A program made the position numbers and the translations under genes. A stretch of DNA of 7,780 nt from a virus (taxonomy: Duplodnaviria; Heunggongvirae; Uroviricota; Caudoviricetes), in the IMG/VR virus record IMGVR_UViG_2537562231_000014, positions 1 to 7,780 of that record; one strand, given 5' to 3'. Under the pieces are notes generated by a model. It saw only the letters and a list, made by a program, of their open reading frames with translations, was not told the origin of the DNA and did not search any database. This document shows, piece after piece, positions 1-7,780 of the stretch; position 1 is the first letter of the stretch; each line of letters opens with the position of its first letter.

Positions 1-927
1 CTCCAGAATATTAATAAGCGGATTATCCTTCTGCCCCTGCGGCGCACCGGCGATATATTCAAAGGCCTTTTCGGTATCAAGGTCACTTTCAATCGTCGCT
101 GCATACATGGCCTTCACAATGGCCGACTGAAGCTGTGTTGCCTGCAGGGAATCGAGCATCTTCAGCCGTTCCATGACGCTGTAAAACTGGTTGGCCCCAC
201 GGGTCTGCCCGTCCTCCACCGGCTCGAAAATATGCAGCATGGCCGGACGCCCGGTGGGAAGTTCACGCGGGATCCGTTCCCATCGTCCACTCCCGGAGCG
301 AGGAAAATCATCCTCACAGATATGGTACGCAACGGCACGGCCATATCGATCGACCTCCACCCCGGCCCGCAGAAAACGGTTCCCCATACCGTGTCCTGGC
401 GTGTCCACCCGTTTCGGACTCACGGCTTTAAAACGCGTACGGAATAACTGCGTGGTTTCCGTATCCCAGACCGGCTGCACAAAGATTTCGCCGTTAAACG
501 CATGAACGCCCACACCTTCACGGATAAATTCCGTGAACGTGCGTTTTCCTTCCACGTCGATCTCGCCAGACATCCCTTCGGCGTATTCCGACCAGGCCGC
601 CTCCACCTCATCGACAAAGCTTTTTGCTGCGGTCTCCCGCATCCCCAGCCAGCGCCAGTTCGGACGGTAGCTGATAAGAAACATATGCCCGACAATGTGA
701 TCCTTATGCAGTGCCACCGCATTGGCCGCTATTCCGTTATTGCGCACCAGATCATCTGCCCGGGCATTCCCCAGACGCAACGCGGGCAGCAGGGCCGCAT
801 CGGCACTCTGCGCCGGTGGCAACCACTCCGCCATTTGCCCGCCAAATCCTGCACCGCCCCCGTTGTAGCTGAGACTCTCACGAAGCGGAACGCCGTTCAC
901 ATCAATCAGGACAGGCGTTCGTTTCAT
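1..927 (-). CDS. B: Portal protein (lambda gpB-like), N-terminal 309 codons; the gene continues past the window start
   Basis: The minus-strand frame is open from ATG at 927..925 down to position 1. It translates as MKRTPVLIDVNGVPLRESLSYNGGGAGFGGQ...LRLGNARADDLVRNNG...HIFEPVEDGQTRGAN..., which I recognise as lambda gpB-like. The start overlaps the W stop (ATGA), as in lambda. It is absent from the ORF track because no stop lies inside the window. Confidence 0.9.
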   Translation of the reverse strand, partial: MKRTPVLIDVNGVPLRESLSYNGGGAGFGGQMAEWLPPAQSADAALLPALRLGNARADDLVRNNGIAANAVALHKDHIVGHMFLISYRPNWRWLGMRETAAKSFVDEVEAAWSEYAEGMSGEIDVEGKRTFTEFIREGVGVHAFNGEIFVQPVWDTETTQLFRTRFKAVSPKRVDTPGHGMGNRFLRAGVEVDRYGRAVAYHICEDDFPRSGSGRWERIPRELPTGRPAMLHIFEPVEDGQTRGANQFYSVMERLKMLDSLQATQLQSAIVKAMYAATIESDLDTEKAFEYIAGAPQGQKDNPLINILE

Positions 928-1130
928 AACCTCACTCCCAGCGGACGACGGCGACGCCGGGTTGTCCCCAGTACCGACTCCGCATCATTGATCGCCCGGT
1001 TAAGCTCATCCAGAGAAGCCGCCGTATATTCAATTCTGCGACCATCTTTCTGGACAGACACCACCCGTTTACCGGTTAATAAATCAAGGCGCGCCTGACG
1101 CAGCGCCTGCAGTTCAGCGACTGTAACCAT
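924..1130 (-). CDS. W: Head-tail joining / head completion protein (lambda gpW-like), 68 aa
   Basis: Track ORF of 68 aa, MVTVAELQALRQARLDLLTGKRVVSVQKDGRRIEYTAAS..., the same length as lambda gpW with a similar central motif ([21 protein letters not shown]). A GGAGG Shine-Dalgarno sits at 1134..1138 (minus strand). The gene lies between A and B as in lambda, and its start overlaps the end of A. Confidence 0.85.
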   Translation of the reverse strand: MVTVAELQALRQARLDLLTGKRVVSVQKDGRRIEYTAASLDELNRAINDAESVLGTTRRRRRPLGVRL

Positions 1131-3042
1131 TCACTCCTCCGGACAGCTTCGCTGCCAGTTCTTTAAGGGTTGGCCGGGTCGTCTCTTCTTCCCGGGATTT
1201 TGCCAGTACAGCCAGATCAAGCTGCCAGCGTTGCACGGACACACGTAATGCCGCGTAGGCATACACCAGGCAGTCCAGCGCTTCGTTACGCCGCTTTTTG
1301 TTATCCCACAGCAGACGCATCTTTCCTTTTTCCCACTTCTCCACAAGCTCTTCCGCCACCAGTTGCTGCGCCTCTGTCTGCGAAAAAATCTCCGGATCAT
1401 CAGGAAAACGGATGGCATACGACGTGGCTTCATCCGCAGGCGTGGGATCGGCTTTCATACGGGCATAGAGAATTTCTTTTGCGGTGTCCGTCCCCACTTC
1501 GCACAGATACACGCCCCGCTGATTGCGGGTTTTCGGCATGGTGATCACCGGCTTGCCATAGACAGACGCGCCTTTTACCGGCAGCACCCGGAAAACACCG
1601 TGTTTTTTTGATCTCTGATAGACAATTTCACCATCGATCCCCCCGGTGTCCCAGCAGACACGGGAAATGGTCATTTCGGTGCCATCCGCATGGCGATATT
1701 TTTTGTTGATCGCAGCATCCACACGTAACAGCGTCTCTTCCTCATCGGGACGCCCCATAATGATGATTTTATCCACCAGAAAGGCTTCCTCTCCCGGTGC
1801 CCATCCCCAGACATACATCTCAAAACGGTTTCGCTGCGAGTCAATGCCCGCCGTCAGATAAACCACCCGGGAAGGCACCGCCGCCGTGTAATGCACGACC
1901 TTATCCATCAGTACCTGGTGATCGAGTTTTTCGCCCACGGCCTCTTCCCAGGTCTCGCCCAGCGTGGTGTTAACAAAAGTTTTCAGACCGTTGGGATCTT
2001 TCAGTGCATCCAGCCAGTCATAGACAATCTGTACCCAGGTGGTGAACGGACTGTACGCCGTCCAGATATGGAAAGTGATGGAGCGCGGCGGCGGAATTTC
2101 ATTATCCGCGGCGCTGAAAAACGTCAGGCCGTCACGGGTCCACATGCCCGTGTTTTCACAGATCCACCACCCGTTACTCTGGTCAAGCTCAGACTGATGG
2201 ATCACACAGCCATGATGCTCACAAAGGTAGAAAACACTTTCTGGCTTATTCTTCTCCCACTTAAGACCGAAAGGCGAGGCATCATCGCCAAATTTCAGAT
2301 ACTGCGCCTCCCCACAGTGCGGACAGGGCACGTAAAAACGCATGAAATGTGCCGACTCGTTAGCGGCTTTTTCGATCTGGCAGGAGCCTTTGATTTTAGG
2401 CGTCGAGCCGCGAATGGATTTTGGCCATACAGAGCCCTCGATACGCTTATCCCCCAGCAGGGTTGGCGAGCCCTCTTTTTCGACATCCGGCTCGAACGAG
2501 GAAAGTTCGTCATAGCAGACCACGTCCACGGATTTTTCACGGTAGTTTTTGGCGGCAGCGCCGCCCAGGCACCAGAAACCGACGCCCGATGAAAAGCGTT
2601 TCAGCGTGAGAGTATTGTCACGATGTTTACGACCCAGCCACGGGGAAAGGTCTTTCAGGCATGGCACGTCCCGAATCGTCGCCTCCACGTGAGACTTCAT
2701 AAAATCTTCAGCGGCAGAATCCGTGGGCTGAAAAAGCAGACTGTTTCGGGATTTATGCTCAATAAAATACCCGGCGACTCCCAGCAACATCTTTGTATAG
2801 CCAACACGGGCAGATTTAATCAGGTTAACCGTGCGAACCTGATCATTACCCATACAGTTCATAATGGCGATCTGGAATGGCAGCGTTTTCCATTCGCCGT
2901 CACCGTATGAGGATTCTTTAGGCAGATAATAATACTGATCAGCCCATTCAACTGCCGTCATCGGTACAACCCTGACCAGAGGCTGCAGCGCAACCGAAAC
3001 GGCAGCCATCATATTATTCAGTTGTTGCTCTGATATATTCAT
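1114..3042 (-). CDS. A: Terminase large subunit (lambda gpA-like), 642 aa
   Basis: The track ORF 1114..3099 aligns along its whole length with lambda gpA as I remember it (for example WADQYYYLPKES, KSARVGYTKMLLG, ITFHIWTAYSPFTTWVQIV, RRNEALDCLVYAYAALR). The homologous start is the internal Met MNISEQQ (lambda MNISNSQ) at 3042..3040. The upstream 19 codons of the track ORF overlap the nu1 3' end and are unlikely to be translated. Confidence 0.95.
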   Translation of the reverse strand: MNISEQQLNNMMAAVSVALQPLVRVVPMTAVEWADQYYYLPKESSYGDGEWKTLPFQIAIMNCMGNDQVRTVNLIKSARVGYTKMLLGVAGYFIEHKSRNSLLFQPTDSAAEDFMKSHVEATIRDVPCLKDLSPWLGRKHRDNTLTLKRFSSGVGFWCLGGAAAKNYREKSVDVVCYDELSSFEPDVEKEGSPTLLGDKRIEGSVWPKSIRGSTPKIKGSCQIEKAANESAHFMRFYVPCPHCGEAQYLKFGDDASPFGLKWEKNKPESVFYLCEHHGCVIHQSELDQSNGWWICENTGMWTRDGLTFFSAADNEIPPPRSITFHIWTAYSPFTTWVQIVYDWLDALKDPNGLKTFVNTTLGETWEEAVGEKLDHQVLMDKVVHYTAAVPSRVVYLTAGIDSQRNRFEMYVWGWAPGEEAFLVDKIIIMGRPDEEETLLRVDAAINKKYRHADGTEMTISRVCWDTGGIDGEIVYQRSKKHGVFRVLPVKGASVYGKPVITMPKTRNQRGVYLCEVGTDTAKEILYARMKADPTPADEATSYAIRFPDDPEIFSQTEAQQLVAEELVEKWEKGKMRLLWDNKKRRNEALDCLVYAYAALRVSVQRWQLDLAVLAKSREEETTRPTLKELAAKLSGGVNGYSR

Positions 3043-3196
3043 CGAGTAAATCCGGTAATTTATCCCCTGCCCGCGCACACTGATTTGCCCCCTTAGCAAT
3101 AAGGGTTTTCAGATGGTCAAGATGGCGCGGTGTTAAATCAGGAAACTGTCGCTGCATGGATAAAGGGATGGAATCAAGCGTACTGGATAACGCCAT
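3014..3196 (-). CDS. nu1: Terminase small subunit (Nu1-like), C-terminal segment in a different frame from the N-terminal segment
   Basis: Track ORF of 60 aa, MALSSTLDSIPLSMQRQFPDLTPRHLDHLK...LLDEYI, matching the lambda Nu1 C-terminus (ILDGLPLSVQRRFPELENRHVDFLK...LLSEYIEQ). The frame is open upstream to 3232 (HRVLYFALSKLA, compare lambda TFVLSRIAGEIA). Its 3' end overlaps the start of A by 29 nt, as nu1 and A overlap in lambda. Together with 3133..3522 this forms one nu1 gene broken by a 1-nt frameshift near 3215..3220. Confidence 0.65.
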   Translation of the reverse strand: MALSSTLDSIPLSMQRQFPDLTPRHLDHLKTLIAKGANQCARAGDKLPDLLDEYIRATTE

Positions 3197-3522
3197 TGCC
3201 AGCTTACTGAGGGCAAAATACAGAACCCGGTGTCAATAAGTTTTCCTTTTGACACCTCATTTTTTAACTGCTGTGTAACAGCCTGTTCTGCTGTCAGTTC
3301 CCATCTGGCAATAAGCAATTTCTCCTCATAGTCGTCTTCGCTATCGCCATCAGGCACATCGTTTTTACTTCTCCTCAGATACGATATGTAAAAATCGCGC
3401 CAGGCATCCAGATCCAGTTGCCCTCGCTTATTCGATATCGGGGCACCCGGCAATTTCTGCAATCTGCGAAGCTGGCGATCGGTCAGACTTAAATGCCTGG
3501 CAACTTCAGTCTGCGTAGCCAC
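3133..3522 (-). CDS. nu1: Terminase small subunit (Nu1-like), N-terminal segment of a gene interrupted by a frameshift
   Basis: Track ORF of 129 aa with a GTG start at 3522..3520. Residues 1-101 (MATQTEVARHLSLTDRQLRRL...TGFC) align with the lambda Nu1 N-terminal DNA-binding domain and linker (...ETAFC). After residue 101 the frame no longer matches Nu1 and stops 28 codons later. The rest of Nu1 continues in the -1 frame (next feature). Confidence 0.7.
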   Translation of the reverse strand: MATQTEVARHLSLTDRQLRRLQKLPGAPISNKRGQLDLDAWRDFYISYLRRSKNDVPDGDSEDDYEEKLLIARWELTAEQAVTQQLKNEVSKGKLIDTGFCILPSVSWQWRYPVRLIPSLYPCSDSFLI

Positions 3523-3562
3523 TCCTCACCTCGCAAAAACTCTCACCTCACAATCACAACAA

Positions 3563-3667
3563 AACCGGTCATGTCCGGTTTACATGTCTGTTTTTTGTTC
3601 ATGTCCGGTTCACAGAAGACCTGTTTTTATATTTTTCATATAGTTAACTTGAAGAGAAACCGGACAT
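3563..3667. repeat. cosB-like cluster of three copies of ATGTCCGGTT (candidate small-terminase binding R-elements) flanking an AT-rich, probably bent segment
   Basis: ATGTCCGGTT occurs at 3571..3580 and 3601..3610 on the plus strand and inverted at 3658..3667. The first copy sits in a larger palindrome, AACCGGTCATGTCCGGTT. The AT-rich stretch 3611..3657 separates copies 2 and 3. The cluster lies between cosN and the nu1 start, where lambda has R3-I1-R2-R1. Confidence 0.6.
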
Positions 3668-3705
3668 GGATCCCGGAAAATTTTCATAAATAGCGAAAAC
3701 CCGCG

Positions 3706-3717
3706 AGGTCGCCGCCC
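3706..3717. other. cosN (12-nt cohesive-end site) of a lambda-type cos; cosQ-like flank at about 3718..3750
   Basis: The minus strand reads ...GGGTCCTTTCCGGCGATCCGACAGGTTACG|GGGCGGCGACCTCGCGGGTTTTCGCTATTTATGAAAATTTTCCGG.... This matches the lambda right end joined to the lambda left end as I remember them. The match stops where the lambda cosB R3 element would begin. Confidence 0.8.
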
Positions 3718-3924
3718 CGTAACCTGTCGGATCGCCGGAAAGGACCCACGAAAATGATAATAATTATCATCTACATGAGGTTTATCACGACATGTGTGTA
3801 CGCCATCAAACCACGAGAAATAATCAATTATTACGCAGGTATCGTATTAATTGATCTGCATCAAATTAGCGTAAAAGCAACTTCAGATAATACAAATCAG
3901 CAACACTGAATACGGGGCAACATT

Positions 3925-4149
3925 ATGTCATCAAAGAACAGAACCCGCAGAACAACAACCCGCAACATCCGATTTCCAAACCAGATAATTGAACAAATTA
4001 ACATCGCTCTTGACCTGAAAGGTTCAGGTAATTTTTCAGCGTGGGTTATTGAAGCCTGCAGAAGAAGATTAATTAATGAAAAACATGCTCAATTTGTACC
4101 CAACAAAGACAAACACGACCAGAGCACCTGTTCAGACAGGTTTACTTAA
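3925..4149 (+). CDS. Small YlcI/YnfO-like protein (DUF3950-type), 74 aa
   Basis: Track ORF MSSKNRTRRTTTRNIRFPNQIIEQINIALDLKGSGNFSAWVIEACRRRL.... The motif TRNIRFPNQ.IEQINIAL..KGSGNFSAWVIEACRRRL is as I remember the cos-proximal YlcI/YnfO proteins of E. coli lambdoid prophages. It is the only convincing plus-strand gene in the window and is followed by a hairpin terminator. Confidence 0.7.
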   Translation: MSSKNRTRRTTTRNIRFPNQIIEQINIALDLKGSGNFSAWVIEACRRRLINEKHAQFVPNKDKHDQSTCSDRFT

Positions 4150-4168
4150 ACGACTTATATATGACACA

Positions 4169-4197
4169 AAAAGCGACCACTAAAGTCGCTTTTTCTT
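4169..4197. terminator. Bidirectional rho-independent terminator between convergent genes
   Basis: AAAAGCGAC-CACTAAA-GTCGCTTTT followed by TCTT: a 9-bp stem with an A-run on the 5' side and a T-run on the 3' side, so either strand sees a hairpin followed by U-rich sequence. It sits between the plus-strand gene ending at 4149 and the minus-strand gene ending at 4231. Confidence 0.65.
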
Positions 4198-4230
4198 ATG
4201 GTAACAGGCAATAACTCTCTCAGATATTTT

Positions 4231-4545
4231 TTAGCATTTTTTTGACCGCGCGTTTCCGGACGTATTCTGTTCTCCTGTCCCTTTATATCGTCGGAATACC
4301 CGCCGCTCTTCAAATCCCATTCCCAACTCAGAATGTAGTCTGTTGACCGCTTGTTTTATTTCGGTCAGGTTCACCGGTGAAACCGGAGTCCGGCGCGCCT
4401 TACGCAAACACTCTGCTCGTTTCTGTGCCGCCACTTTTCTTTTCTGGTCATCACTTAGCTGTACCATCACTTTTGCCCATCGTTCAGCTGCTCTCCGGTA
4501 CAGTCCTTTTTTCTCCAGACATTCTGCCACGTGATCATGTAGCAT
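4231..4545 (-). CDS. PerC-family-like small basic regulator (prophage accessory gene), 104 aa
   Basis: Track ORF MLHDHVAECLEKKGLYRRAAERWAKVMVQLSDDQKRKVAAQKRAECLRKARR.... A strong Shine-Dalgarno (GGAGG) lies 6 nt upstream of the ATG. The N-terminal LE.KGLYRRAA.RW motif and the basic, helical character fit PerC/Pch-type proteins as I remember them. The family assignment is from memory, not a search. Confidence 0.5.
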   Translation of the reverse strand: MLHDHVAECLEKKGLYRRAAERWAKVMVQLSDDQKRKVAAQKRAECLRKARRTPVSPVNLTEIKQAVNRLHSELGMGFEERRVFRRYKGTGEQNTSGNARSKKC

Positions 4546-4779
4546 AAGTGACCTCCGATTATCTACAGACTGCCATCCTGAATTTACCTTCCCTTAATGA
4601 AATAACAATAAAAACACAAACCACGCAAAAACAATAAAACAACACAACAAAAAAACTAAATAATAAACAAAATAATCACCTTATTTTATTATTTTTTGAG
4701 GGAGCAATTACTGAACAAAAAACGCTGACTATATACTCAAAACCAAACAACTATTCTGCCAATCAGGTATCATGGCAAC

Positions 4780-4800
4780 ACACGGAATTACCGTGTTTTT
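4780..4800 (+). terminator. Small hairpin plus T-run (weak terminator-like element) inside the AT-rich gap
   Basis: ACACGG-AATTA-CCGTGT followed by TTTT (6-bp stem, 5-nt loop). No convincing upstream plus-strand gene, so its function is uncertain. Confidence 0.25.
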
Positions 4801-5010
4801 GCCTTCTCTGCCCATACAATACGGGCATATACTTCATTCTCTATTGTAATATTTCTATCCATGTGCCCCACTCCATTTACCTGTAAATAATATTCAAAAT
4901 ATTTATCACAGAAATCGTTTTTGGCCATGAACTGAGCACACTATAAAGTCCGGAACTGACTCTTTGTTAAATTACCTTAACGTTACCAGTAACACCTTCA
5001 TAACAAAACA

Positions 5011-5478
5011 TCACGGTGTACACTGGGTACGGATATATTCCTGTGCTCCTTCCAGTTGCTTCTGCATTGCCATCAGCCGTTCTCTGAGGATGAAATAATC
5101 CCGTTCAGCGGTGTCTGCCAGTCGGGGGCCGGTTGCATTATCCACGCCGGAGGTGCCGGTGGCTTCACGCACGGTACCGGAGCAGGTGGCGTTGATCCGC
5201 AGGCGCTTACGACCAGCGGCAACATCAGCACGCAGAGTTTCATTTTCAGCTCTCGCATCGGCTAATTCCCTCGAGTATCTGGCATCAAGTGCAGCGACAT
5301 CACGCTGGCGTACCTGCATATCAGTAATTGTCACGTTCGCCAGCTCCAGCTCACTGGCTTTTTTATCGCGCTGCGCTTTGTAGGTAATGGCGTTATCACG
5401 GTAATGATTCAGCCCCAGACTAAGCGCACCACAGGCCACCAGCAGGACAATAATCACCACACACAGAACACGGTTCAT
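5011..5478 (-). CDS. Rz: Spanin inner-membrane subunit Rz (i-spanin), 155 aa
   Basis: The track ORF 5011..5502 contains [39 protein letters not shown]...[34 protein letters not shown]...[24 protein letters not shown], closely similar to lambda Rz. The start is taken at the Met before the transmembrane helix (ATG 5478..5476). Confidence 0.9.
5073..5258 (-). CDS. Rz1: Spanin outer-membrane lipoprotein subunit Rz1 (o-spanin), embedded in the +1 frame of Rz
   Basis: Track [64 protein letters not shown]. It has a lipobox (LVVSAC), a proline-rich mature part, and near-identity to the lambda Rz1 motif [30 protein letters not shown]. It lies wholly inside Rz. Confidence 0.9.
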
Positions 5479-5479
5479 T

Positions 5480-5617
5480 TCACCACCAGCGTATCTGACC
5501 AATGAAATAACCGGAAGCCATAATCACAAACACCAGCCAGATAAGGATGAACTTCCAGGTGGATAATTTTTCAGCCATCATTCGAATCTCCCGAATCAGT
5601 TTGCTAAAATCAAACAC
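5480..5617 (-). CDS. Candidate small single-pass membrane protein (45 aa from GTG at 5617, or 33 aa from ATG at 5581), translationally coupled to Rz; function unknown
   Basis: This is the 3' part of the track ORF 5480..5698. Internal starts have strong ribosome-binding sites: AGGAG-5nt-GTG (start 5617..5615) and GGGAG-6nt-ATGATG (start 5581..5579). The product, ..[40 protein letters not shown], has one hydrophobic helix. Its TGA stop (5482..5480) abuts the Rz ATG (TGAaATG). The track start at 5698 has no Shine-Dalgarno and would span a stable hairpin. Confidence 0.4.
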
Positions 5618-5653
5618 ACTTTCTCCTTTGACTTTTCCGGAGTCAGGAAACAC

Positions 5654-5686
5654 AAAACCCCGCTTGCGGCCAACAAACGGGGTTTT
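5654..5686. terminator. Terminator-like hairpin between the endolysin and the small membrane-protein ORF
   Basis: AAAACCCCG-(15-nt loop)-CGGGGTTTT: a GC-rich CCCCG/CGGGG core flanked by an A-run and a T-run, followed on the minus strand by GTGTTTCC and on the plus strand by ACTTTTATT. It could act on either strand. It lies about 90 nt downstream of the endolysin stop. Confidence 0.45.
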
Positions 5687-5775
5687 ACTTTTATTCACTT
5701 AGTTTTTGCCAGTTCGCAGGATTTCGTGTTATCCGCCCGTGTGAGCAAACCGCATTTTTCAGCAAAATATTCTGC

Positions 5776-6309
5776 TTATCTGTCAATTCCCCAGCACGCC
5801 AGCGCGCTCTCCTGGTCACGACGGGATACCTGACCGTAACAGTTGTTTGAACGAATACGGCAGTCTCTGCCACCGTCCTTAATCCACCAGCGAATCGCTT
5901 CGCAGGCACCTTTTCGATCACCTGCATTAATTCGTCTGTAAAACGTAGACGGGAAACACTTACCGGGACCAATGTTGTACGGACAGAATGACGCAATACC
6001 CGCTTTCTGGGGTTCGGTCAGTGGCACTCTGATGTTTTTCGCCACCCATGCCAGCGCCTTATCACGTTCAATGGCGTTAACCTGGTCGCATTTTTCCTTC
6101 GACAACTTCATGCCCGGGAGGACAGGCTTACCATCCACCCGGGTGGCTCCACGGCAGATGGTCCAGATACCCGCACCATCACGGTATGCCGTGGTGTGGT
6201 TACCTTCCTTTTCATCCAGAAACTGGTCGAGGATTTCAGGCGCAGGCGCACCTGCGGCAATCAGCGCCAGAACGGCAGCCGACAGGCCGTATTTGATTTT
6301 GGTGTTCAT
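5776..6309 (-). CDS. R: Endolysin, lysozyme family (phage 21 R-like), with an N-terminal hydrophobic anchor of the signal-arrest-release type, 177 aa
   Basis: Track ORF MNTKIKYGLSAAVLALIAAGAPAPEILDQFLDEKEGNHTTAYRDGAGIWTICRG.... It has a Gly/Ala-rich hydrophobic N-terminus, then the lysozyme catalytic pattern E-x8-D-x5-T (DEKEG...YRDGAG.WT), and a C-terminal region like R21 (RRINAGDRKGACEAIRWW). It is paired with a pinholin upstream. Confidence 0.85.
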   Translation of the reverse strand: MNTKIKYGLSAAVLALIAAGAPAPEILDQFLDEKEGNHTTAYRDGAGIWTICRGATRVDGKPVLPGMKLSKEKCDQVNAIERDKALAWVAKNIRVPLTEPQKAGIASFCPYNIGPGKCFPSTFYRRINAGDRKGACEAIRWWIKDGGRDCRIRSNNCYGQVSRRDQESALACWGIDR

Positions 6310-6351
6310 GGATATTTATCAGGGTTTATCGATTTCAAATCCCTGGATATG

Positions 6352-6684
6352 TTAAGTCTTCAGAGAACCAGTAATTATTCCCGGTAGTTTTCCTCTGTAG
6401 ATTATCAACACATCCTGCGCCTCTAAAATGATGGGCCGCTTTTCCGGCAACGGACCATCCCCTTCACATAACCCGGCAGCAACATCCATGAAAAACTGCT
6501 TCGCCTGCTTTTTCGCCTCAGCTTCGTAAAACTCCAGCGTGGCTCCTTCAGTACGGTCAAGACTAATCGCCACATCTGGCAACAACAGTGACGGATACCC
6601 ACCAATTTCCAGTGCCACAGTAACAGTAATCTTATCCGGGTAATTATTTATCCCTTTAACAACCAGTTCGTATTTTTTCTTCAT
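6352..6684 (-). CDS. Conserved prophage protein of unknown function inserted between holin and endolysin (possibly YdfR/DUF1327-like), 110 aa
   Basis: Track ORF MKKKYELVVKGINNYPDKITVTVALEIGGYPSLLLPDVAISLDRTEGATLEFYEAEAKKQ.... A GGAGAG Shine-Dalgarno precedes the ATG, which lies 5 nt after the holin stop. The holin-X-endolysin position matches Qin-type prophages (essQ-ydfR-rrrQ). The family name is from memory of gene order, not from sequence identity I can verify. Confidence 0.6.
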   Translation of the reverse strand: MKKKYELVVKGINNYPDKITVTVALEIGGYPSLLLPDVAISLDRTEGATLEFYEAEAKKQAKQFFMDVAAGLCEGDGPLPEKRPIILEAQDVLIIYRGKLPGIITGSLKT

Positions 6685-6688
6685 CGCT

Positions 6689-6895
6689 TTACTCTCCCCG
6701 GGCAGCCTTGCGACGGTCCTCTCTGATTTTGAAATACAGGTTAGTCAGATACGTCAGCAGGCCAAACAGCAGACTCCCCAGCACACCGATTGCCACCCAC
6801 TGGGACGGAGAGACTTTGTCCAGCAGCTGCAGTAACCAGTATCCCGTCCCCACCGCTGACGTGGTGTATGACACACCTGTTGTGATTTTTTCCAT
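6689..6895 (-). CDS. S: Class II holin (phage 21 S21-type pinholin), 68 aa
   Basis: The track ORF 6689..6964 contains [68 protein letters not shown], nearly identical in its C-terminal two-thirds to S21 as I remember it. The start is taken at ATG 6895..6893, preceded by GGAGA at a 10-nt spacing. The upstream GTG at 6964 has no Shine-Dalgarno. Confidence 0.85.
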
Positions 6896-7151
6896 CTGAT
6901 GTATGTCTCCGTCACCGCCGACAGAAAATGAAAGTAAAGGAAAACAAAAAGCCGCCAGTGTCACCCACTGACGGCCAACGCCGGGAGCCGTGATTATGGC
7001 ATTCAGGCTCTGCTAAAAATGCCAGATAACATTCCGACCAACCCCTGATTCAGGTTATAAATGACACAATATCTTGACAACATCCGTCACTGTCTGTCAG
7101 AAAATGTACTGCCAGATATAAGTATCATGTGAAACCCAACTATCCTTCTTA

Positions 7152-7191
7152 GCCAGTACTTCTCCGACGAAAGTCAGTACTGGCTGTTTTT
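7152..7191 (+). terminator. Plus-strand rho-independent terminator, antisense to the late operon
   Basis: AGCCAGTACT-TCTCCGACGAAAG(TC)-AGTACTGGCT followed by GTTTTTTTATT: a 10-bp stem with a T7 run on the plus strand only. On the minus strand the hairpin is followed by AAGAAGG, so it is not a terminator for the late genes. Confidence 0.55.
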
Positions 7192-7194
7192 TTA

Positions 7195-7780
7195 TTATGC
7201 TGCCGGTGCATTTATCTCCAGCACCAGACTTTCTATCTCAACGCCATACGCTGCATTTTTTGTAACATCCGTCAGCGTCAGCGCATTCAGCCCCAGTGTC
7301 AGACTGTCTTTTATGACCTGGAATGCCGGGCCAGCCACTCCATTCAGTTTCGGAGTAACCGTGGCACTGCCGGCGGTGAACACCAGCTCCAGCGTCTGCC
7401 AGTCGTTACCGTAATCGCCGAACTCCCCCAGCTTCGTGTTTCCGGCTTTCCTGTGATGCATCAGATTCACTCTGCCGTCAGTGGTCTGAGTGAAGTACGA
7501 CATCAGGAACGGATTACCGGTACCCGTCATCGCCACACCATCAGGAACGGGAGCGTCCGTATACAGATAAATCCCCAGCCCGAACTGATTGTTGGTCAGT
7601 GCGCCTGACAGGCGGAACTTACAGGTCAGTCTGCCGCCCTGTGTCAGCAGGGTAATTGCGTCATCCACCGGATGCGTCAGGGACCAGGTTTTATTGCTCT
7701 GCTTGGTGATCTTAAATACACCATCTGACAACTGAATTCCGCCATCCTTAATGCTCCAGCCCTGCGCAGCAGCCTCTCCG
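7195..7780 (-). CDS. Late-region accessory (moron) protein, C-terminal 195 codons; the 5' end lies beyond the window. Function not assigned (possibly the C-terminal domain of a large NanS-p/YjhS-like protein)
   Basis: The track ORF 7195..7731 is open on the minus strand all the way to the window end (in-frame upstream: GEAAAQGWSIKDGGIQL-SDGVFKITK..., no stop), so the track start (TTG) is an artefact. It sits directly upstream of the holin, where lambdoid prophages carry morons. The beta-rich sequence (..NQFGLGIYLYTD..GEFGDYGNDWQTLELVFTAG..) suggests a binding or lectin-like domain. Confidence 0.7.
   Translation of the reverse strand, partial: GEAAAQGWSIKDGGIQLSDGVFKITKQSNKTWSLTHPVDDAITLLTQGGRLTCKFRLSGALTNNQFGLGIYLYTDAPVPDGVAMTGTGNPFLMSYFTQTTDGRVNLMHHRKAGNTKLGEFGDYGNDWQTLELVFTAGSATVTPKLNGVAGPAFQVIKDSLTLGLNALTLTDVTKNAAYGVEIESLVLEINAPAA

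Follow-up and report, generated by a model that had tools for sequence, protein, structure and literature searches.

The window analyzed here is a 7,780-nucleotide stretch of viral DNA (Caudoviricetes; IMG/VR record IMGVR_UViG_2537562231_000014, positions 1 to 7,780), and its source is a Shiga toxin (Stx)-type prophage. The lysis genes of the window lie on the minus strand throughout, and the endolysin gene R and the i-spanin gene Rz are separated by 297 bp, in agreement with the gap of about 300 bp given by an initial annotation of this DNA (coordinates are collected in Table 1). Read along the minus strand, the gap opens with a spacer of 89 nt and continues with a hairpin that has an A-tract on one side and a U-rich tail on the other (hairpin 1), a smaller hairpin (hairpin 2), the Shine-Dalgarno (SD) sequence GGAG, a GTG start codon at position 5617, and a small open reading frame (ORF) that ends TGG TGG TGA. 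The TGA of the small ORF (5482..5480) is followed by a single base (5479) and then by the ATG of Rz (5478..5476), such that the stop codon abuts the Rz start as initially described. Moreover, the folding of a 311-nt gap segment beat that of 100 out of 100 shuffled versions (z = -3.2). Below, we argue that the small ORF is a gene, that it travels with its hairpin as a mobile cassette, and that it may be controlled by a predicted antisense RNA.

The small ORF and its two start codons

Homologs of the small ORF were found by protein and DNA searches in Escherichia coli, Escherichia albertii, Escherichia fergusonii, Salmonella and 10 further genera, with hosts that include Citrobacter, Trabulsiella, Edwardsiella, Yersinia, Izhakiella, Sodalis, Brenneria, Symbiopectobacterium, Providencia, Serratia and Dryocola. 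Homologs were also present in the isolated phages SPN3UB, FSL SP-016, SEN34 and Rac-SA53 and in two Pseudomonas phages. Among 12 diverged copies, the proportion of synonymous sites that differed in the ORF frame (pS; NG86 method) averaged 0.62, which is near saturation, but the nonsynonymous proportion (pN) was 0.19, giving a pN/pS ratio of 0.31 versus 0.77 and 1.74 in the remaining two frames. Relative to the window copy, dN/dS ranged from 0.08 to 0.26. All copies begin with GTG (TTG in two) behind an SD sequence, full-length copies are 45 codons long with the exception of one Pseudomonas phage copy of 48, the majority end in GQIRWW, and substitutions within the transmembrane (TM) helix are conservative. 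The family is small, as a HMMER scan of 1.8 billion representative sequences returned no more than 40 clusters (at 50% identity), every one made up of short proteins. Because purifying selection is specific to its frame, we judge the small ORF to be a real gene.

The sensitive profile search and structure prediction that the initial annotation had proposed gave a match to phrog_6632 only and a helix-break-helix fold, respectively. AlphaFold2, run on a small alignment, placed helices at residues 4 to 17 and 20 to 44 with a break at residues 18 and 19 (pLDDT 85). Residues 20 to 44 are hydrophobic in sequence, and only RWW remains at the C terminus. In the model, the peptide is thus an N-terminal amphipathic juxtamembrane helix followed by one TM helix and a C-terminal RWW, and the positive-inside rule predicts that its N terminus faces the cytoplasm. 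We conclude from sequence comparison that the small ORF is a genuine gene, the predicted product of which is a single-pass inner-membrane peptide. Two other readings of the region were rejected. A 72-amino-acid reading from GTG 5698 (called by PGAP as WP_001043239.1 in NZ_CP027591.1) is an over-extended start call, because its first 27 residues are not conserved and run through hairpin 1. A 51-amino-acid ORF on the plus strand (5547..5702) was set aside because it begins upstream of the transcription start predicted for that strand (see below) and crosses the hairpin.

Within the small ORF, the codon for Met14 (ATG 5578) is invariant and is preceded nine nucleotides upstream by the sequence GGGAG, which resembles a second SD sequence. 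Codons 9 and 10 have a G at the third position in every copy, and the G-rich sequence is kept even where the encoded residues change from RE to QG in Symbiopectobacterium or from RE to GG in a viral contig. The window copy has an additional ATG at 5581 that yields a 33-amino-acid version. Moreover, natural alleles abolish the long form and leave the frame from Met14 to Trp45 intact. One such allele, found in viral contigs on at least three haplotypes, converts CGA12 to TGA; another carries a frameshift in the G run; and the Serratia copy has a stop just upstream. The viral contigs were collected by a pattern scan, which was used for codons 7 to 45 and for the natural alleles only and was left out of account for codons 3 to 6 because its pattern selected for them. 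Forms of 32 amino acids also occur as annotated proteins in genomes. The N-terminal extension is nevertheless under selection at the protein level, as indicated by synonymous changes at Leu7, Ile8 and Arg9. We conclude that the gene probably has two products, a 45-amino-acid form from a weak GTG with a partly occluded SD sequence and a 32-amino-acid form from an internal ATG with its own SD sequence. The initial annotation was therefore right to call a small ORF with a hydrophobic helix, but the start that it favored, beginning MMAEK, is the internal one and the conserved start is GTG 5617.

To estimate prevalence, a 361-nt query around the gap was compared with complete genomes and phage records. 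Of 5,426 complete E. coli genomes, 2,029 contained a match and 871 contained a match with a coverage of at least 80%. The same query matched 318 phage records, mainly Stx1a, Stx2a and Stx2c phages, and phage H-19B matched at 97.5% identity. Annotation of the gene is inconsistent: PGAP lists a 72-amino-acid "hypothetical protein" in some genomes, CP-1639 carries a 45-amino-acid "putative bacteriophage protein," and H-19B has no annotation at this position. In PHROGs, the 45-amino-acid form matches phrog_6632 end to end (E = 1.8e-29), a family listed with function unknown. Thus, the gene is "unannotated," as first described, in H-19B, but entries for it exist elsewhere.

Other searches for the gene returned little. 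The peptide had no match to a Pfam family at an E value of 1 or below, and none to an NCBIfam family or a PADLOC defense profile at 10 or below. A search of the whole window against Rfam (E ≤ 1) gave two weak matches, both outside 5480..5780, and none for the antisense RNA predicted below. Literature searches with words for the peptide, the hairpin and the promoter DNA found nothing relevant, papers on lysis cassettes made no mention of a small ORF between R and Rz, and a paper on the Enterobacteriaceae microproteome did not discuss the peptide. We conclude that the family is already catalogued as a PHROG and that, as far as our searches show, the cassette organization, the dual start and the antisense promoter are undescribed.

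A hairpin-plus-ORF cassette in late operons

The leader of the small ORF is dominated by hairpin 1, which on the lysis strand is a 15-bp stem followed by UUUUGUGUUUCC. The initial annotation had called this hairpin terminator-like, and its stem is conserved with covariation across 14 diverged copies: 96.7% of alignment cells were paired and 6 of 13 pairs had changed on both sides. None of 500 shuffled alignments reached the observed values, and sliding the partner strand by 1 to 3 columns reduced pairing to between 34% and 58%. RNAalifold predicted hairpin 1 on both strands, with energies of -17.6 kcal/mol in the sense and -14.9 kcal/mol in the antisense orientation, and a single C.A mismatch in the Salmonella copy becomes a G.U pair on the antisense strand. 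Hairpin 1 lies at a fixed distance 5' of the ORF in every copy that has the 45-amino-acid form. Conserved and flanked by an A-tract and a U-tract, hairpin 1 looks like a bidirectional intrinsic terminator. Hairpin 2, which ends beside the SD sequence, has a stem of TGACT/AGTCA in the window; elsewhere a stem occupies the same place with different letters (CCTTG/CAAGG, TCTTG/CAAGG, CGTTA/TAACG, CCTG/CAGG or CATG/CATG). The hairpin 2 variants were read by eye because the alignments were out of register at the stem.

Hairpin 1 and the ORF together occupy roughly 220 bp (the 5480..5700 segment) with a GC content of 0.41, compared with 0.50 to 0.63 in the flanks. In E. coli, Salmonella (locus L006 and phage SPN3UB), E. 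fergusonii, Citrobacter and Edwardsiella, the same unit is preceded by an endolysin gene and followed by an i-spanin gene. The endolysins are of four types (PF00959, GH19, GH108-like and a 138-amino-acid type), the spanins belong to two families, and the holins differ as well. The unit also occurs outside of lysis genes. In the Salmonella phage SEN34 and in Yersinia similis, hairpin and ORF separate baseplate spike from baseplate wedge genes. Serratia has the ORF at that site without the hairpin, directly behind the spike gene, and Dryocola has the ORF there with its leader hairpin further upstream, ahead of an entire array of small ORFs. Pseudomonas phage YMC11/02/R656 carries the cassette in a moron cluster of small ORFs between tail genes, and Brenneria and Symbiopectobacterium carry it behind a 964-amino-acid gene. 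Upstream past the A-tract and downstream past the stop codon, the copies are unrelated to one another. We conclude from these comparisons that the hairpin and the ORF are a self-contained, horizontally mobile cassette, or "moron," that landed between R and Rz in the window.

The R-Rz junction is itself variable among related prophages, as the initial annotation had proposed to check. In the K-12 prophages Qin and DLP12, R overlaps Rz and no insert is present. Sakai prophages Sp5, Sp6, Sp9, Sp10, Sp12 and Sp15 carry an Ant gene and a different, 48-amino-acid TM ORF at the junction. Together with the cassette of the window and a variant cassette, four states of the junction were observed, and because several types of insert occupy it, we regard the junction as a hot spot for insertion. 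The 48-amino-acid ORF, ECs_5707 (phrog_4906), lies behind the Ant gene and fills the slot before Rz in Sakai Sp5 (locus L014, 10383-10529). Sakai Sp4 (locus L109, 5560-5960, minus strand) has the same leader as the window in front of another gene, ECs_1094, which encodes a TM peptide of 37 amino acids (phrog_4493) and ends IRWW-TGA-T-ATG, the ATG being that of Rz.

The junction of the cassette with the spanin gene is preserved in six lysis cassettes. A stop codon, one nucleotide and an ATG are found in front of two unrelated families of i-spanin (PF03245 and DUF2514), and the sequence TGGTGGTGA-N-ATG is shared by the window, Salmonella L006, E. fergusonii L010, Escherichia L015, Citrobacter L017 and Sakai Sp4. 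In the baseplate contexts, the following gene has an SD sequence of its own 8 to 17 nt away.

The leader is not confined to the phrog_6632 family. A covariance model of the leader also matched the leader of a small TM ORF of phrog_12997 in E. fergusonii and the leader in Dryocola, and several of the related peptides end in [IV][RK]WW. In the Pseudomonas phage, the 6632 ORF is followed by a 12997-like ORF. Because the peptides share a leader and co-occur or replace one another, we place the window gene in a loosely defined group of small membrane peptides. PHROG clusters 6632, 12997 and 4493/1115 are known from sequences alone and are without assigned function. Two arrangements were observed besides. 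At E. fergusonii L010 (3671-3908), the phrog_12997 TM ORF (ending WVKWW) has two hairpins of its own and forms a tandem with the 6632 cassette, to which it is upstream; the ORF ends WW-TGA-T-ATG, after which an apparent remnant of a gene start is found. In Dryocola clanedunensis (L026, 2518-3110), a single leader hairpin between the spike and wedge genes precedes four small TM ORFs that are translationally coupled, in the order 12997-like (IRWW end), 1115/4493-like, 12997-like and 6632-like (IRWW end).

A candidate antisense promoter and its interpretation

The first codons of the small ORF are more constrained than their amino acids require. Constraint was measured in copies that had been found through the C-terminal half of the protein, and the set is therefore unbiased by selection on the 5' codons. 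Synonymous sites were frozen at 6 of 11 positions in codons 2 to 12 compared with 0 of 16 in codons 21 to 45 (Fisher p = 0.0016). Invariant in 13 of 13 copies were GAT for Asp3, NTT at codon 4, AGC for Ser5 (one of six possible codons) and the rare codon CGA for Arg12; Glu10 was always GAG. The first base of codon 4 is free, and the residue is accordingly F, I or L. Even the Pseudomonas copy, from a GC-rich host, retains GAT TTT AGC AAG as well as CGA.

Read on the opposite strand, the frozen codons spell a candidate sigma-70 promoter with TCGAAT or TCGCAA as the -35 element, a 17-bp spacer and TGc-TAANAT as an extended -10 element. The frozen sites correspond to the -35 T and -33 G, the TG of the extended -10 element, and the -12 T, -11 A, -8 A and -7 T, and the free, nonsynonymous site corresponds to -9. 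The invariant choices GAT, NTT, AGC and CGA provide the -8 A, -11 A, -12 T, -14 G, -35 T and -33 G. In 14 of 14 copies, a position weight matrix (PWM) gave the candidate promoter the highest score of any site on the antisense strand, and its position did not change. In E. fergusonii, TGcTAGACT is found at the same place in a different small ORF behind the same kind of leader. Transcription from the candidate promoter would start at about 5616 to 5618 and pass into hairpin 1 (5654..5686), with a U tail reaching to about 5697. The predicted RNA would consist of an anti-start/anti-SD segment ACACUUUCUCCUUUG, hairpin 2, an A-R-N-rich linker GGAAACACAAAA, hairpin 1 and the U tail, and an alignment of the antisense strand indicated that this layout is kept in 14 copies. 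We note that the CGA12-to-TGA allele described above also alters the predicted -35 element from TCGAAT to TCAAAT.

Other transcripts and promoters in the gap were considered. Neither the leader nor the sequence upstream of it showed a conserved sense promoter. A promoter-like site on the plus strand at 5495..5524 was discarded, as it is not conserved in Salmonella or E. fergusonii. The small RNAs (sRNAs) AgvB and AsxR, or another EcOnc sRNA, were also discarded as occupants of the gap: AgvB and AsxR sit upstream of S, and EcOnc10-12 (HnrS) sits downstream of Rz. Supplementary transcription start site tables for EDL933 contained no matching sequence words.

One way to account for these features is that the cassette encodes a dual-start peptide under the control of an antisense RNA, a device on the late operon that resembles a type I toxin-antitoxin system. 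We give this proposal an even chance of being correct. According to the proposal, codons 3 to 12 would also serve, on the opposite strand, as an extended -10 promoter. An antisense RNA of about 80 nt would be made constitutively, pair with the SD sequence and start codon of the long form, and end at the upstream hairpin. With no conserved sense promoter in view and a terminator immediately ahead of the gene, mRNA for the peptide would come from the Q-antiterminated late transcript alone. Leaky translation, both in the lysogen and at the beginning of induction, would be silenced by the antisense RNA, and the surge of late transcription would titrate this RNA out. In the window, translation of the Rz spanin might be gated by the same switch, because the stop codon of the small ORF is 1 nt from the Rz ATG. 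The most likely role for the peptide would then be that of a late-acting, membrane-perturbing factor with an influence on when, or how efficiently, the host is killed and lysed. A precedent from the same group of phages is hokW-sokW, a type I system of Stx phage Sp5 that assists release of the phage (PMC8621323), and several sRNA genes lie antisense in the late regions of Stx prophages (PMC4104026, PMC13502914).

Like the type I systems with a SymE/SymR layout, Ibs/Sib and hokW-sokW, the cassette resides in prophages and encodes a peptide of less than 50 amino acids with one hydrophobic helix. Both forms of the peptide, at 45 and 32 amino acids, have the size and character of type I toxins (less than 60 amino acids, hydrophobic and membrane directed). 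Also shared are a predicted antisense RNA of 75 to 80 nt that has its promoter in the first codons of the ORF and covers the SD sequence and start, and an occurrence in tandem or as arrays in certain genomes (E. fergusonii and Dryocola). Unlike those systems, the cassette has neither a conserved sense promoter nor a long structured toxin leader and relies on read-through from the late operon, its stop codon is coupled to a downstream phage gene, and its RNA is predicted and its toxin role suggested by likeness of layout. The sequences upstream of the copies are unrelated to one another, and the peptide has no similarity (no Pfam match) to the Hok, Ldr, TisB, Ibs, ShoB or Zor families. The type I toxin-like character suggested by the initial annotation is thus favored by the layout, through a conserved candidate antisense promoter that the annotation did not mention, but not by membership in Hok or Ldr or by a conserved promoter of the gene's own.

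A number of observations weigh against the proposal of an antisense-controlled toxin-like peptide. The PWM scores of the candidate promoter, 8.3 to 11.6 bits, are not above chance given a 95th percentile of 11.0 for shuffled sequences, and the evidence for the promoter is therefore its conservation rather than its strength. Sp4, which holds the only copy of the leader in Sakai, has another ORF body, no promoter motif and no peak in Hfq-CRAC (cross-linking and analysis of cDNA) data, a result that is uninformative and lends no support; data sets from Sakai were uninformative in general, its other prophages listed above carrying the Ant-type insert. The G.U wobbles in the inner stem of hairpin 1 (8 to 9 cells) favor folding of the sense strand. 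Canonical type I toxins are transcribed from a dedicated promoter into a stable mRNA, and the search here for a conserved sense promoter was negative. Moreover, the peptide has no sequence relation to toxin, holin or defense families, and the antisense RNA and both peptide forms are deduced from sequence. Finally, the frozen sites could instead reflect limits set by translation initiation or mRNA structure at two closely spaced starts.

That last point can be developed into the main alternative, an explanation with the same cassette and the same dual start but no antisense RNA, which we consider somewhat unlikely. The frozen sites, extending over codons 3 to 20, would serve initiation by way of an unstructured, A/U-rich start region and the internal SD sequence, and hairpin 1 would be a partial terminator or insulator on the sense strand of the late operon or a 5' stabilizer after processing. 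Consistent with such an explanation, constraint is also found outside the promoter elements, at GGGAG in the spacer, at ATG14 and at TTA18 (in 12 of 13 copies); the U.G wobbles strengthen the sense hairpin, for which the consensus energy is slightly better; and the single promoter score is unremarkable. Composition nonetheless fails to explain why AGC, CGA and GAT are invariant even in a GC-rich Pseudomonas phage while the first base of codon 4 varies freely, and a sense terminator within the essential baseplate operon of SEN34 would be a cost with no obvious benefit. Far less support can be found for a fortuitous ORF next to a hairpin that alone is functional as an R-Rz terminator. Several records, H-19B included, leave the ORF unannotated, but frame-specific purifying selection against a background of saturated synonymous change already contradicts a chance ORF, as does preservation of the start, SD sequence, length and C terminus from Escherichia to Pseudomonas phages, and we find the idea hardly credible.

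Two further explanations grant the peptide a function of another kind. An accessory lysis factor was among the roles raised initially. A protein dedicated to lysis, either a peptide that modulates an antiholin or pinholin or a partner of the spanin whose evolution was tied to the Rz position, would be in keeping with the location directly 5' of an i-spanin gene, the stop and start codons set 1 nt apart in six cassettes, the lambda S-like layout of two starts and a stem near the SD sequence, and the other small TM ORFs in the same slot (ECs_1094, ECs_5707 and the E. fergusonii phrog_12997 ORF). The copies in SEN34, Yersinia and the Pseudomonas phage have the same leader and lie far from lysis genes, and these baseplate and tail-operon locations argue that a dedicated antiholin or spanin partner is not the general function. 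In addition, the peptide is without the charged C-terminal tail of holins and most related prophages lyse without the cassette, and a dedicated lysis role is improbable. Another candidate, also named in the initial annotation, is a moron expressed in the lysogen whose membrane peptide blocks superinfection, as HK97 gp15 does, or otherwise benefits the host. The low-GC insert occurs at several late-operon sites, including a classical moron cluster among tail genes, and the peptide is a small inner-membrane protein by prediction. Superinfection exclusion is disfavored because an intrinsic terminator lies directly upstream, only some 35 nt before the SD sequence, and no conserved sense promoter is visible; there is also no PADLOC match, and we regard a benefit to the lysogen as slightly more improbable still.

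The cassette can be compared with the systems on which these explanations draw. The holins lambda S and S21 have a dual-start motif with starts 2 to 3 codons apart, an upstream sdi stem-loop and a charged cytoplasmic tail. The cassette shares with them two in-frame starts that would give a long and a short membrane protein, a stem-loop that abuts the upstream SD sequence and, in the window, a location among lysis genes. It differs in that its starts are 13 codons apart, the peptide has one TM helix and a C-terminal tail of 3 residues, copies are also found outside lysis cassettes, and there is no homology to holin families; the peptide matched no holin family in Pfam or PHROG, and the real holin of the window (6895..6689) matched PF04971. 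A periplasmic domain, a lipobox and a match to spanin families were likewise absent from the peptide. In classical morons such as HK97 gp15, the gene is preceded by a promoter and followed by a terminator. With morons the cassette has in common extra low-GC DNA between conserved late genes, a small membrane protein, and presence or absence among close relatives, but its terminator lies upstream with none downstream, and its only conserved promoter-like element points the opposite way.

The moron concept is cited in a study of Stx-prophage sRNAs (PMC4104026), and in the late regions of such prophages AgvB/AsxR (PMC4104026) and HnrS, or EcOnc10-12 (PMC13502914), are sRNA genes in antisense orientation. 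Shared with the RNA predicted here are short length, an intrinsic terminator, orientation against the late operon, and multiple copies owing to multiple prophages. The known sRNAs, by contrast, map upstream of S or downstream of Rz, regulate in trans via Hfq and do not overlap a peptide gene. None of them is present in the window, and the RNA that we propose is a predicted cis-antisense RNA.

A broader generalization, which we put forward tentatively and think possible rather than probable, is that the cassettes represent an unrecognized class of promoterless, dual-start peptides that end in [IV][RK]WW, are gated by antisense RNA, and are carried by late operons from Escherichia to Pseudomonas, with PHROG 6632 as the main family and 12997 and 4493 as partners or alternates. 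In H-19B-type phages, such cassettes would control a toxin-like peptide together with the coupled spanin, and thereby the timing of lysis and toxin release. About one-sixth of complete E. coli genomes carry the cassette, as do many Stx1a, Stx2a and Stx2c phages, the reference phage H-19B among them, and the operon in which it lies there is the one whose expression releases Shiga toxin. If the peptide and RNA tune killing or spanin synthesis, they would add an unstudied step to the control of lysis timing and of toxin release. Toxin-antitoxin-like modules would then have a means of spreading that needs no promoter, phage late transcription being borrowed instead, and three PHROG families of small membrane proteins now without a role would acquire one. 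The gene is also a clean test case for reading an overlapping promoter, two starts and a coding sequence from the conservation of synonymous sites.

Feature coordinates and neighboring genes

Table 1. Positions of the cassette, its predicted elements and the surrounding lysis genes in the window
Feature	Position	Strand	Remarks
Small ORF, long form, 45 amino acids	5480..5617	-	Coordinates include the stop; GTG 5617, GGAG 5626..5623
Small ORF, short form, 32 amino acids (Met14)	5480..5578	-	ATG 5578, internal SD sequence GGGAG 5592..5588
TGAaATG junction	5476..5482	-	Small-ORF stop, one base, Rz start
Hairpin 1	5654..5686	both	Stem-loop flanked by A-tract and U-tract; 5' edge of cassette
Hairpin 2	5629..5645	-	5-bp stem TGACT/AGTCA; ends beside SD sequence
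Predicted antisense sigma-70 promoter	5582..5610	+	-35 TCGAAT, 17-bp spacer, extended -10 TGc, TAAAAT
Antisense promoter parts	-35, 5582..5587; TGc, 5602..5604 (TG, 5602..5603); -10, 5605..5610	+	
Predicted cis-antisense RNA, about 80 nt	5617..5697	+	Deduced from promoter and terminator
R-Rz gap, 297 bp	5775..5479	-	Carries hairpin 1, hairpin 2 and small ORF
Spacer after R, 89 nt	5687..5775	-	Outside cassette; same sequence follows R in Sakai Sp5
R, signal-arrest-release (SAR)-type lysozyme/endolysin	6309..5776	-	Upstream neighbor outside cassette; PF00959, 1.4e-24
Rz (i-spanin)	5478..5011	-	Downstream neighbor outside cassette; PF03245, 9.7e-49
Rz1	5258..5073	-	Embedded in Rz; PF06085, 1.7e-21
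Holin, S21 type	6895..6689	-	PF04971
DUF1327/YdfR-family gene	6684..6352	-	Between holin and endolysin

The 89-nt spacer that precedes the cassette is common to prophages with an Ant insert (Sakai Sp5, L014 9544-9640), and the sequences part at the position of the hairpin. Parts of the spacer recur, with partial similarity, behind unrelated endolysins in Salmonella L006 and Edwardsiella L018. The spacer also carries a hairpin of its own, GGAUAACACGAAAUCC, at 5734-5719 on the minus strand.

Downstream of Rz, the window (4546-5010 and 3925-4149) differs from Sakai Sp9, Sp10 and Sp12, and the HnrS locus found downstream of Rz in those three prophages is absent from the window. The only part held in common with them in this region is a YnfO/YlcI-like gene (3925..4149, plus strand). 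A terminator-like hairpin is located on the plus strand downstream of Rz, at 4780-4796. At the other end of the lysis genes, the YdfR-family gene (6352-6684) is a second non-canonical resident of the lysis cassette; its function is unassigned, and it is also present in Qin of K-12. A further terminator-like hairpin, with 11 pairs followed by TTTTGTTTTC, lies at 6950-6976 on the minus strand just 5' of the holin start and falls within an extended ORF (6964..6689).

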